Shown here: positions 5,095-28,059 of the stretch, one piece after another
Numbering within the stretch: the first letter of the stretch is position 1
How the letters are laid out: every line of letters begins with the position of its first letter
Assembly (NCBI GenBank): GCA_964398115.1
Contig: CAYNLP010000002.1
Location: 36,724-81,003 of the forward strand
Origin: an uncultured Methanosarcinales archaeon
Lineage (GTDB): Archaea; Nanobdellota; Nanobdellia; Woesearchaeales; CAYNLP01
Reading direction: 5' to 3'
DNA length: 44,280 bases
The notes under the pieces: model-generated
Told to the model about the DNA's origin: nothing
What the model saw: the letters and a program-made list of their open reading frames with translations, nothing else
The model's database searches: none
Position numbers and translations under genes: made by a program

Positions 5095-5149
5095 GAAATA
5101 GAAGTTAATTTTAAAAACAAATCAGAATTCGTAAAAACAAAAAGTACGC

Positions 5150-5276
5150 GCGGGTGTGCCGGAGTGGTCAAACGGACGTGGCTCAAGACAACTTGAGCTA
5201 TGAGGTCACCAAGACCGATGAATGTGAGTAACCACGGGGCTTAGTGCCTTCGCAGGTTCGAATCCTGCCACCCGCA
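5150..5276 (+). tRNA. tRNA-Leu(CAA) with 43-nt intron (5188-5230) at position 37/38; CCA not encoded
   Basis: Acceptor GCGGGTG/CACCCGC+A, anticodon stem CGTGG/CCACG, CAA at 5184-5186, long variable arm, T-arm GCAGG-TTCGAAT-CCTGC. BHB motif: CTCA/TGAG helix with AG|A and TA|A bulges. Confidence 0.96.
5188..5230 (+). ncRNA. tRNA intron; candidate minimal K-turn (box C/D-like) guide RNA
   Basis: CTTGAGC is antisense to the anticodon loop and is followed by ATGA-GGTC...GACC-GAT-GA-AT, which has K-turn geometry (see findings). Confidence 0.55.
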
Positions 5277-5320
5277 TTTTCAAGTAACTTTTATAAACTA
5301 AATAATTCTCTACGTCGAAT

Positions 5321-6637
5321 ATGGGACTTTCAGTAATACCAATCGGCGGATTCAAAGAAATAGGAAGAAATTCAGTGGCCGTAAGAGCAGACGATGAAGT
5401 AGTAATCCTAGACATGGGACTACAAATGGACACATACATAGAATACACCAGAGAAGAAAGAGAAAGTTTGGAAGTAACCCCTAAAAAACTAATGGAAATC
5501 GACGCAATACCCAACGTGAACATAATAAAAGACTTAGAAGAATTTGTCGAAGGAATATGCGTAACACACGCACACCTAGACCACGTAGGCGCAGTTCCAT
5601 TCCTAGCCGACAAATTCGGTGGTAACATCCACTGTACAGAATTTACCCAAAACTTGCTCAACAAGATGAGCGAAGAGGATGGAAAACACATACAGAAAGA
5701 CGTTCAAGCTCACGAAATAAATTCAACTTTTCAAATAAGCGACAAGTTAGAAATAGAATTCATACACGCTACGCACAGCACTCCTCAAACTGTTATGATT
5801 GCAGTCCACACTCCATATGGCACCGTCTTATACGCCCCAGATTACAAACTTGACAATGCACCAACACTCGGACCTAGAACCAATTATGAAAGGCTAGAAG
5901 AAATGGACGTAAAATGTTTAATTAGTGACGCTCTCTACGCCAACGACCCTATCAAGACACCAAGTGAAAGCATAGCCAAAGAAATGTTGAAAGATGTACT
6001 ATTAGGAACGAGTTCTGAAGACAAAAGCGTTATAGTCACAACGTTTGCCAGCCACATCGCCCGATTGAAAAGCATAATAGAAATAGGACAAATGATGAAC
6101 AGAAAAGTATTATTCATGGGCAGAAGTCTACACAAATACGTCACTTGTGCCGAACAAGCTGGACTAGTAAACTTCACAGACCAAGTAGACATTATAAAAT
6201 ACGGAAGTCAAATCAAAGACTGGCTAAACAATTGTCAAAACCCAGAAGATTACTTAATGGTAGTGACCGGTCATCAAGGAGAACCCAACAGCACCTTAGG
6301 TAAAATGGTGTACGGCGACCAATTCCACTTCGACTTTGAAGACCACGTAATATTCAGCGCAAGAGTAATCCCCGTAGAAATAAATGAACTAAACAGAGAA
6401 AAAATGGAAGAACAACTCCGAAGCAAACACGTACGAATCTTCAGAGACATCCACGTAAGCGGACACGGAGCTAAAGAAGACAACAGAGAACTCATACACA
6501 TGGTAGATCCAGAACACATCGTACCTACCCACGGCGACCTGAAAAGATTACAAGCGCAAAAAGACCTAGCACTCGAAATAGGATACAAGGATCAAAACGT
6601 ACACATCCTAGGAAACGGCGAAAGACTACAACTCTAA
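5321..6637 (+). CDS. rnj: ribonuclease J (beta-CASP metallo-beta-lactamase)
   Basis: GGFKEIGRN, THAHLDHVG, HST, FASHIAR, GHQGEP and HVSGH motifs. TTTATAAA at 5290-5297. Confidence 0.93.
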   Translation: MGLSVIPIGGFKEIGRNSVAVRADDEVVILDMGLQMDTYIEYTREERESLEVTPKKLMEIDAIPNVNIIKDLEEFVEGICVTHAHLDHVGAVPFLADKFGGNIHCTEFTQNLLNKMSEEDGKHIQKDVQAHEINSTFQISDKLEIEFIHATHSTPQTVMIAVHTPYGTVLYAPDYKLDNAPTLGPRTNYERLEEMDVKCLISDALYANDPIKTPSESIAKEMLKDVLLGTSSEDKSVIVTTFASHIARLKSIIEIGQMMNRKVLFMGRSLHKYVTCAEQAGLVNFTDQVDIIKYGSQIKDWLNNCQNPEDYLMVVTGHQGEPNSTLGKMVYGDQFHFDFEDHVIFSARVIPVEINELNREKMEEQLRSKHVRIFRDIHVSGHGAKEDNRELIHMVDPEHIVPTHGDLKRLQAQKDLALEIGYKDQNVHILGNGERLQL

Positions 6638-26869: not shown

Positions 26870-28059
26870 ATAAGACAATTCTTTACATCACGATAGCACT
26901 CATAGCTTTAACGGCAGTAACCGCTCAAGTAACAGAAACGGGCGAAGACTTAGAAGTGACTTTATTACAATACGAGCCAGTACCTGCGCATCCAGGAGAC
27001 TCATTGGACGTGTGGGTTAAGATAGAAAATGTGGGTGGCGACGTCGCTCGAAATGTCCAGCTACAAATGAGCGATAACTATCCTTTCAGCGTGTCAAGTG
27101 AAAGAAACCTCCATACTATCGGAACTTTGCCTGGGCAAAACGCGTACGTGGCCAAGTTTAGAATGAGGGTTGATAGCAACGCGCCAGCAGGAACCTCCAC
27201 TCTACGTGTTAGGTACTCAAAAGGTGAAGGAACGGTTTGGAAGGAAGAGTACCTTCCTATAGATATAGAGTCTAGAATCACAGCTTTAGAAATCGAGTCT
27301 GTAGAGATGACTCCGAAAAACCTCGTGCCAGGAACAGAGGGTCAATTGAAACTTACTGTGAGAAACACTGCCGATTCACAAATTAGAGATGTGAATGTAA
27401 AGTTGGACTTGGAAAATTCTGAAGCTCCAATAGTACCGGTGCAGAGCAGCACTCAGTTAAGGATTGATAGCTTGGCACCTGGTGAAACTAAGGAGTTCGT
27501 GTTTAATGTGATGGCTGAACTCGACGCATCATCCAACGCGTACACTCTACCCGTTGATGTGTCTTTCAAGGATGACGAGGGTGATGAAATAACGTATGAA
27601 ACCCTGGTGGGTATAGTGATTAAGTCACCGCCTGAACTTTCAGTGACTGTTGATTCAAACGATGTTTACAGTGATGCTAGAACGGGCACGGTAACTTTGA
27701 AATTTGTGAATAAAGGCTTGGATGAGATTAAATTCCTCTCATTCAACTTGTCCGAGGACGACTCCTATAAATTGATAAACCCCACTGATAGCTTTTACGT
27801 GGGAAACATTCGCAGTGATGATTACGAACTTCAAGATTTGAGGATTGAAGCTCATAATGAGGATAGGGTTAACCTCCCCATGTCGATTCAGTATAGAGAC
27901 GCGGCTAATAACGTTCATACCACCCAGCAAACAGTAACTTTGCAGTTGGTTGAGGAATCATCCGTTACGGAAGAAGAAAGTAACACAACTACTTGGGTTA
28001 TAGTGTTGATGGTGGTGTCGGGTATCGCGCTTTATTTCTGGAGAAAAAGGAAAAAGTAA
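26866..28059 (+). CDS. COG1361-type S-layer-domain protein (repeated Ig-like/CARDB modules)
   Basis: Signal peptide, YEP.PA.PG....V.VKIEN.G modules, C-terminal TM plus basic tail, located inside the ABC operon. Confidence 0.82.
   Translation: MNKTILYITIALIALTAVTAQVTETGEDLEVTLLQYEPVPAHPGDSLDVWVKIENVGGDVARNVQLQMSDNYPFSVSSERNLHTIGTLPGQNAYVAKFRMRVDSNAPAGTSTLRVRYSKGEGTVWKEEYLPIDIESRITALEIESVEMTPKNLVPGTEGQLKLTVRNTADSQIRDVNVKLDLENSEAPIVPVQSSTQLRIDSLAPGETKEFVFNVMAELDASSNAYTLPVDVSFKDDEGDEITYETLVGIVIKSPPELSVTVDSNDVYSDARTGTVTLKFVNKGLDEIKFLSFNLSEDDSYKLINPTDSFYVGNIRSDDYELQDLRIEAHNEDRVNLPMSIQYRDAANNVHTTQQTVTLQLVEESSVTEEESNTTTWVIVLMVVSGIALYFWRKRKK

Follow-up and report, generated by a model that had tools for sequence, protein, structure and literature searches.

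A candidate single-K-turn box C/D-type guide in the intron of a woesearchaeal tRNA-Leu(CAA) gene, and its counterparts in related archaea

Anatomy of the tRNA-Leu(CAA) gene

The DNA described here belongs to an uncultured archaeon that is labelled Methanosarcinales in GenBank and placed by GTDB in the Nanobdellota, order Woesearchaeales (assembly GCA_964398115.1, contig CAYNLP010000002.1, positions 36,724 to 81,003 of the forward strand). This stretch of 44,280 nucleotides (nt) is the window throughout. Near its start lies an intron-bearing, class II tRNA-Leu(CAA) gene, and the subject of this work is its 43-nt intron, in which a complement of the tRNA's own anticodon loop stands beside a hairpin-capped kink-turn (K-turn). 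The features of the gene and the other loci discussed are collected in Table 1. Handles beginning with G denote genomes (G000 is the present one) and those beginning with L denote loci.

The identity of the gene follows from its body. The acceptor stem pairs GCGGGTG with CACCCGC; the gene further has a discriminator A, a long variable arm and an anticodon loop CTCAAG ahead of A38, so that it reads as Leu(CAA) with G37. In the window, tRNA was the sole Rfam family above threshold, and relaxing the search to E values up to 10 over 5130-5300 gave no credible match besides tRNA. ARAGORN with default settings reported no tRNA in the whole window, and an Rfam-based search of the whole genome also missed both the Leu(CAA) and the Leu(UAA) genes of this organism. 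With introns allowed, ARAGORN called the gene Met(cat) and shifted the intron two nt to the left; that call was rejected, and Leu(CAA) preferred, because of the long class II variable arm, A73 and the geometry of a canonical bulge-helix-bulge (BHB).

Inside the intron, the antisense CTTGAGC is separated from its target GCTCAAG by a 4-nt loop (5188-5191). The fifth nucleotide upstream of the ATGA box, G5195 (position N+5), pairs with C34 (5184), and this is the best ungapped register, with a run of 8. Positions 5200-5223 have the composition of a K-turn, presumably with sheared G·A/A·G pairs. More specifically, they resemble a box C/D K-turn, with a D'-like NNGA (AUGA here; CUGA, CAGA or AAGA in relatives) and a C'-like xAUGA followed by 2 nt. 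A sequence-only reading of the window had proposed all of this: the 7-mer exactly complementary to positions 31-37 is there to the last base, the K-turn anatomy (ATGA, GGTC/GACC stem, GAT bulge, GA, AT) agrees base for base, the pairing of the fifth nucleotide with C34 is confirmed, and the size of the intron and the identity of the gene fit the BHB geometry and the class II body. The short duplex that it raised as a caveat amounts, in the best register, to the run of 8 given above.

Table 1. Coordinates of the tRNA-Leu(CAA) gene, its intron and other loci of the same genome. Positions are those of the window unless a contig is named.
Feature	Position	Strand	Basis or remark
tRNA-Leu(CAA) gene, class II, intron-bearing	5150..5276	+	Rfam tRNA 44.9 bits, model positions 1-71; ARAGORN (introns allowed) gives the same span
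5' exon, positions 1-37; anticodon C34 A35 A36 = 5184-5186	5150..5187	+	manual cloverleaf
Target strand, tRNA positions 31-37 including wobble C34 (5184)	5181..5187	+	exact complement of 5192-5198
43-nt intron at canonical position 37/38	5188..5230	+	splice sites 5187/5188 and 5230/5231 fixed by BHB geometry
Antisense guide 5192-5198 plus one spacer nt 5199 (N+1); G5195 = N+5	5192..5199	+	
D'-like box AUGA (d1 d2 G A)	5200..5203	+	
K-turn C stem GGTC/GACC (5204-5207/5213-5216) with 5-nt loop 5208-5212	5204..5216	+	
C'-like box: 3-nt bulge GAU 5217-5219, GA 5220-5221, AU 5222-5223 (pairable with d2, d1)	5217..5223	+	
BHB 3' strand: h' 5223-5224 (with 5189-5190), TGAG 5225-5228, bulge TA 5229-5230 plus A38	5223..5230	+	
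3' exon, positions 38-73	5231..5276	+	
EndA gene	G000:C2:32576-32836		this genome
Nop5 gene, 245 amino acids	G000:C5 (locus L003:1495-2232)	minus	
Stand-alone two-K-turn box C/D small RNA (sRNA) candidate	G000:C2 ~27415-27515	minus	~9 kb before window start

Conservation and covariation across the order

A loose K-turn hairpin motif is frequent, with 935 matches in this 1.0-Mb genome, so that conservation and covariation have to carry the argument that the module is not a chance arrangement. Genes for tRNA-Leu(CAA) were gathered from the order blind to their introns, with a pattern that runs from the D loop as far as the anticodon. There were 62 matching places, in 60 of 401 genomes; four places in genomes flagged as unpublished were omitted and one was cut by a contig end, which left 57 genes for evaluation. 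Fourteen of these genes have no intron, three have an intron of 12-16 nt, and 40 have one of at least 30 nt. A strict K-turn was defined as NNGA, a stem of at least 3 bp, a 3-nt bulge and GA, with an N+5:C34 run of at least 4. This module, with N+5 on C34, occurs in 29 of the 40 long introns, against 0.28 of 40 expected from 12000 shuffles. Other registers lag far behind, with just a weak 4-bp echo at position 28. Allowing an A·A variant adds L064 and L074, and inspection by eye adds L036 (first stem pair A·C) and L076 (2-bp stem), for 33 of 40 introns under at least 22 family labels.

Among the 40 long introns, L088, L090 and L091 represent another intron type. The intron at L050:423-485 (G080) is reversed, with a box C-like AUGAUGA near its 5' end and AUGA near its 3' end, and is perhaps an alternative solution or a copy in decay. 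A stand-alone Leu(CAA) guide was also sought in five genomes whose Leu(CAA) gene is intronless; the K-turn matches were tRNA-Met introns only, with a pattern that is blind to K-loop-type sRNAs.

A wider scan covered 185,579 species genomes with a pattern of fixed D arm, anticodon loop, antisense core and D' GA followed by G, and returned 114 stretches. Among the 80 matches listed, nearly all bin labels are Woesearchaeota, Nanoarchaeota (Nanobdellota) or Nanoarchaeia, and the rest are two Undinarchaeota and some Methanosarcinales or bacterial bins. A stem, a 3-nt bulge and GA follow downstream, where the pattern made no demand, in 107 of the 114, compared with 21% of shuffled controls. The seven misses are two non-tRNA matches in bacterial-labelled bins (L120 and L149), a truncated locus (L112) and four with 2-bp stems. 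In 102 unique sequences, the d1-c4 pair is CG in 36, as in the box C/D consensus, AU in 28, UA in 15 and GC in 3, and the bulge is GAU in 61, AAU in 18 and UAU in 13. The second and third pairs of the C stem each take at least five pair types (the second, for example, is UG in 34, CG in 25, GC in 19 and AU in 8).

Of 113 parsed arms, four non-members (L050, L072, L088 and L090) and two very long arms (L114 and L151) were left out, and the other 107, of which 30 came from the intron-blind collection and 77 from the scan, were aligned with MAFFT. Across the guide helix, C stem and anticodon stem, 96.2% of cells are paired, and the guide helix by itself reaches 95.6%. This structure scores 0.351 for covariation. 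Shuffles give 0.138, with none of 500 matching the observed value, and slid partners give no more than 0.074. Pair 31:N+2, the sole guide pair free to vary, is AU in 89 arms, GC in 9 and something else in 9. The D' GA (alignment columns 36-37) is invariant or nearly so, and the distance from the antisense core to the D' box is free of indels in every sequence, unlike the loop, the hairpin and the 3' tail, whose lengths differ. The comparison with relatives that had been suggested as a check thus finds the antisense 7-mer, the K-turn and their spacing conserved, with covariation in the C stem, in d1-c4 and in 31:N+2.

Guide hairpin and splice fold

The minimum free energy fold predicted for the precursor is a guide hairpin of 11 bp, including G·U pairs (5177-5187/5192-5202), with a fold z-score of -4.1 when the whole pre-tRNA is taken and of -5.4 when the arm is taken. 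The competing BHB fold pairs CTCA (5182-5185) with TGAG (5225-5228), leaves bulges at 5186-5188 and 5229-5231, and adds a 2-bp h' helix (5189-5190/5223-5224). It has what is expected of an archaeal intron at 37/38, namely a 4-bp central helix, two 3-nt bulges and an encoded EndA; h' is merely 2 bp long. When each fold was enforced on the arm of this genome, the guide hairpin came to -22.5 kcal/mol versus -11.7 for the BHB. The guide fold is predicted to be the stabler in 88 of 109 related arms, with a median difference of -2.9 kcal/mol.

The central helix of the BHB is itself conserved in the 107 aligned arms: C32-G in 107, U33-A in 93 plus 12 U·G, C34 opposite G in 59 or A in 48, and A35-U in 106. 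This pairing accounts for the 3' motif of the intron, U(G/A)AG, in which A replaces G in 48 of 107 sequences. Because the guide hairpin and the BHB share bases 32-35, they are mutually exclusive in cis. The sequence-only reading had anticipated this exclusion, and it extends beyond the present gene: both structures need CTCA 5182-5185, and both folds are conserved among relatives.

The same module in other tRNAs

The module recurs in three further tRNA introns of this genome, those of Met(CAU), Trp(CCA) and Glu(UUC), each with an antisense that fits its own anticodon and with N+5 on nucleotide 34. Their layout is antisense, one spacer nucleotide, NNGA, a GC-rich hairpin and GAUGA. The N+5 placement typical of C/D guides is thus found for Leu(CAA), Met, Trp and Glu. 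The module is present in all seven Met arms that a regular expression recovered from 11 loci (four loci were unparsed) and also in G001, G065 and G298, giving 10 genomes. For Trp(CCA) it occurs in this genome, L192 and G001. For Glu(UUC) just 2 of 18 genes have it (this genome and G001), which suggests a recent gain. The spacing is standard, with N+5 on U34, in the Leu(UAA) orthologues of G001 and G002, and up to five different K-turn introns occur in one genome. A 2021 review (PMC7994747) and a 2020 survey of tRNA modification (PMC7668247) give nucleotide 34 of Leu(CAA), Leu(UAA), Met and Trp as a predicted target of C/D sRNAs in Pyrococcus; with the exception of Glu, the module-bearing tRNAs are this same set.

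Several other intron arrangements were met along the way. The tRNA-Trp(CCA) gene of this genome (G000:C12 ~5710-5860, plus strand) was found by the K-turn scan and missed by both ARAGORN and the Rfam-based genome search; it is interrupted twice, by a K-turn guide intron at 37/38 and by another intron within the T loop. In a tRNA-Leu(UAG) intron (L029:1420-1562, G033), the N+5 of the K-turn would reach over the 3' splice junction to pair with C39 in a 6-bp duplex, an arrangement that recalls Um39 of Haloferax volcanii tRNA-Trp. Class II tRNA genes with two or three introns (D loop, anticodon loop and variable/T region) are frequent in the order and mostly mislabelled by ARAGORN; examples are L009, L019, L021, L031, L102, L104 and G000:C36:512-659.

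Putative protein partners and a stand-alone sRNA candidate

The sequence-only reading had named L7Ae, Nop5 and fibrillarin as the genes to look for, and all three are encoded. The present genome, which is 91% complete, has L7Ae (99.9 bits), a Nop-domain protein (191 bits) and a fibrillarin of 218 amino acids (237.6 to 239 bits). The Nop5 is truncated: its residues 21-244 align to residues 133-373 of Pyrococcus furiosus Nop5, so that the coiled coil and the C-terminal domain are kept and the N-terminal domain is missing. A Pfam NOP5NT search of the genome carries no weight here, since the model stayed below cut-off in archaeal control genomes as well. Similarly short Nop5 proteins occur in G001, G007, G020 and G025, and stop-to-stop frames of 243-267 amino acids in 9 of the 29 genomes with a match. 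A 123-amino-acid hydrophobic open reading frame lies between the nop5 and fibrillarin genes.

A model of the Nop5-fibrillarin complex supports binding of fibrillarin by the short Nop5 through Nop5 residues 3-23. The ipSAE score was 0.89 in 3 runs, with 0.00 for the best of 3 controls and a partner pLDDT of at least 88; in calibration, 58 of 80 solved and 2 of 110 mismatched pairs came up to the mark, and since Nop5-fibrillarin complexes have already been solved, the pass may reflect likeness only. Fibrillarin was found in 59 of the 61 genomes of the order that were searched, a distribution that leaves a test of co-occurrence with the module too little power. G019 (0.6 Mb, 98% complete) is an anecdote in this regard: it has no fibrillarin above cut-off and no Nop5 with the query used, and the intron of its tRNA-Leu(CAA), 14 nt long, has no K-turn. 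A search of G019 and G042 for the Met- or Trp-type module gave no convincing match.

This genome also holds a candidate for a stand-alone box C/D sRNA with two K-turns. A terminal 7-bp stem brings together GAUGA and GAGA, and the interior has AUGA, a hairpin and GAUGA, with two 14-nt guides. A target search returned many matches with one mismatch and identified no target, in an assembly from which rRNA is possibly missing. The candidate shares the hairpin-capped D'/C' motif, and the intron module thus resembles the internal half of an sRNA of this genome. A crude genome scan for canonical double C/D sRNAs yielded 14 rows, mostly purine-rich coding repeats, and was dropped.

Comparison with known guide RNAs

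The intron of tRNA-Trp in H. volcanii is about 105 nt long. It belongs to the closest precedent for the present module, the C/D guide carried by the intron of euryarchaeal pre-tRNA-Trp (H. volcanii, Pyrococcus; PMC7994747, PMC4090602), which a 2014 review calls a unique example (PMC4090602). As described in these sources, the two have much in common: an intron at 37/38, a complement of the tRNA's own anticodon loop, a D' guide with C34 at N+5, and L7Ae, Nop5 and fibrillarin as proteins. The Trp intron, however, is a full sRNA with a median length of 65 nt, both C/D and C'/D' motifs and two guides, for C34 and U39 (PMC7994747, PMC4090602). Here, by contrast, one K-turn and one 5-8-nt guide are found in introns of 37-57 nt and in five tRNA species.

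A second precedent is closer in phylogeny. The elongator tRNA-Met of Nanoarchaeum equitans has a stable 66-nt intron that was proposed to be a C/D sRNA (Randau 2012, PMC3491384). It too is a tRNA-Met intron in a DPANN archaeon with one box C-like and one box D-like motif, and it is probably the same kind of element and a relative, a comparison drawn from text passages of that paper, which concern one tRNA in one organism and mention neither a target register, nor a hemi-guide architecture, nor a conflict with the BHB. Trans-acting Pyrococcus C/D sRNAs, as portrayed in the papers cited above, share the target nucleotide 34 and the tRNA species, but all except the Trp guide sR50, housed in the tRNA-Trp intron, are stand-alone genes, and they have two K-turns and act in trans. 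The synthetic hemi C/D ribonucleoprotein (RNP) is alike in having one K-turn and one guide (PMC1635284). That particle is artificial, whereas the intron guide is natural and covalently tied to its target by a loop of 2-14 nt.

Generic K-turns bound by L7Ae (rRNA Kt-7, RNase P RNA, the L7Ae mRNA leader) also have the C stem, the 3-nt bulge, the tandem G·A/A·G pairs and the non-canonical stem, but they are without an adjacent antisense in the N+5 register. Two further structures were considered and rejected. A second K-turn, built from the UUGA of the 5' antisense and a 3' GUGA, also in a circularised intron, fails in that UAAG takes that place in half of the relatives and no partner fits for pairing. 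An H/ACA guide is contradicted by the lack of an ACA 3' of the hairpin and of a pocket, with tRNA the only Rfam match. The intron module would be an element that works like a box C/D guide yet falls outside the bipartite definition of that family. A full-text literature search, thin on subscription journals, turned up no account of tRNA-intron guides with a single K-turn in Woesearchaeota or any other DPANN archaeon.

Proposed mechanism and alternatives

Taken together, the sequence evidence makes it probable that the intron is a natural single-K-turn (hemi) box C/D-type guide for 2'-O-methylation of nucleotide 34 (Nm34) on the pre-tRNA, in competition with the BHB fold. L7Ae would bind the hairpin-capped K-turn formed by the D'-like NNGA and the C'-like xAUGA, and Nop5 and fibrillarin would join the complex. 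Immediately ahead of the D'-like box, the 7-nt antisense would pair with positions 31-37, either of the same pre-tRNA as a cis hairpin or of another copy, and C34, in the fifth base pair from the box, would receive the methyl group (Cm34). The RNA would then refold, or the RNP leave, before EndA cuts at the BHB. Because the guide fold occupies bases of the BHB, refolding is needed before cleavage, and methylation would precede splicing. We infer such a methylate-then-splice switch, including the order of its events and the choice between cis and trans action.

Several observations weigh against this guide function. The Leu(UAA) intron of this same genome has one extra nucleotide, which puts N+5 on U33; an extra G likewise puts L040 and L041 off register, with N+5 on position 35. 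The intron of L072 has the antisense without a K-turn, and at L029 the anticodon antisense sits 16 nt from the D' box. The genomes counted are related, so that the counts overstate independence, and 77 of the 107 aligned rows were chosen by a pattern that required the antisense. The Nop5 of this genome is without the very domain that holds fibrillarin in solved structures. The guide duplex is short, at 5-8 bp; archaeal C/D guides usually measure 10-12 nt. The 43-nt intron fits one GA/GA motif only and so lacks the paired C/D and C'/D' motifs of a bipartite guide, an architecture that has been called absolutely conserved among the complexes found in nature (PMC1635284). In vitro, a C/D complex with a single site showed activity without site specificity (Hardin and Batey 2006, PMC1635284). 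Two ways round this non-specificity can be imagined, both speculative: the 2-14-nt loop to the target might supply the missing second anchor and so fix the register, or a Nop5 dimer could bridge the K-turns of two introns.

The most serious alternative is that the guide acts mainly in trans after excision. A linear or circular intron sRNA would pair with the anticodon loop of a spliced tRNA or of another pre-tRNA, and two half-guides would possibly be bridged by a Nop5 dimer into a two-K-turn particle. The Trp intron guide of H. volcanii has been reported to act in trans (PMC4090602, PMC7994747), the Nop5 of this genome retains its coiled-coil region, and as many as five different K-turn introns are present per genome. 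Action mainly in trans nevertheless strikes us as rather doubtful: in many introns the loop between target and antisense is 3-4 nt, and the cis hairpin should form first.

The K-turn could also be a structural module that binds L7Ae and aids folding or splicing of the pre-tRNA, without any methylation, and with the antisense hairpin as a kinetic trap or timer. L7Ae would clamp the K-turn, and the 2-bp h' helix of the BHB could extend the non-canonical stem of that K-turn. The two nucleotides after the C' GA do often form h' (for example in L047), so that BHB and K-turn could stack with the guide looped out; the greater predicted stability of the guide hairpin in 88 of 109 arms makes a refolding aid plausible; and L7Ae is known to bind K-turns of RNAs other than C/D RNAs, among them RNase P RNA and mRNA leaders. 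A purely structural role is unlikely even so, since it leaves unexplained why N+5 stays fixed on nucleotide 34 in five tRNA species while all other intron spacers vary in length, and why the tRNAs involved are for the most part ones with C/D-guided Nm34 elsewhere. Many Leu(CAA) genes of the order, moreover, have a short intron or none and manage without a K-turn.

It is highly improbable that the antisense and K-turn position some other anticodon-loop modification, on the base of C34 or U34, in place of fibrillarin 2'-O-methylation. Precedents can be cited, in that C34 of yeast tRNA-Leu(CAA) is modified in an intron-dependent manner by a stand-alone enzyme (PMC4090602) and acetylation-guiding C/D snoRNPs appear in the reference list of PMC7994747. 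The N+5 register, however, is the hallmark of fibrillarin placement, nothing points to another enzyme, and fibrillarin is kept in nearly all the genomes searched. Finally, the prospect that complementarity and GA motifs met by chance in an ordinary intron is negligible: loose K-turn hairpins are common and a BHB at 37/38 always imposes some complement to the anticodon loop, but chance is refuted by the excess over shuffles in the intron-blind set (29 of 40) and the scan (107 of 114), by covariation and by recurrence in other tRNAs.

For the guide function preferred here, a broader proposal can be made, and we hold it tentatively, as possible but short of an even chance. The Woesearchaeales may have a minimal C/D system, with hemi-guides in up to five introns per genome, a truncated Nop5, Nm34 formation in cis, and a two-state switch between guide hairpin and BHB by which splicing would be licensed only after modification.

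Conclusions and outlook

If the proposal is true, the bipartite architecture of C/D guides, called "absolutely conserved", would have an exception in nature in these introns, which might also offer a picture of how guide RNPs originated. Widespread one-K-turn guides that are covalently joined to their target would put the two-K-turn rule to the test. At 40-60 nt, they would also provide a minimal system for structural and biochemical work, and the idea of a modification-before-splicing checkpoint would become directly testable. The functional introns of archaeal tRNAs would grow from one textbook case, tRNA-Trp, to a family that spans five tRNAs. For the organisms themselves, the finding would suggest why these DPANN archaea, whose genomes measure ~1 Mb, retain fibrillarin and Nop5.

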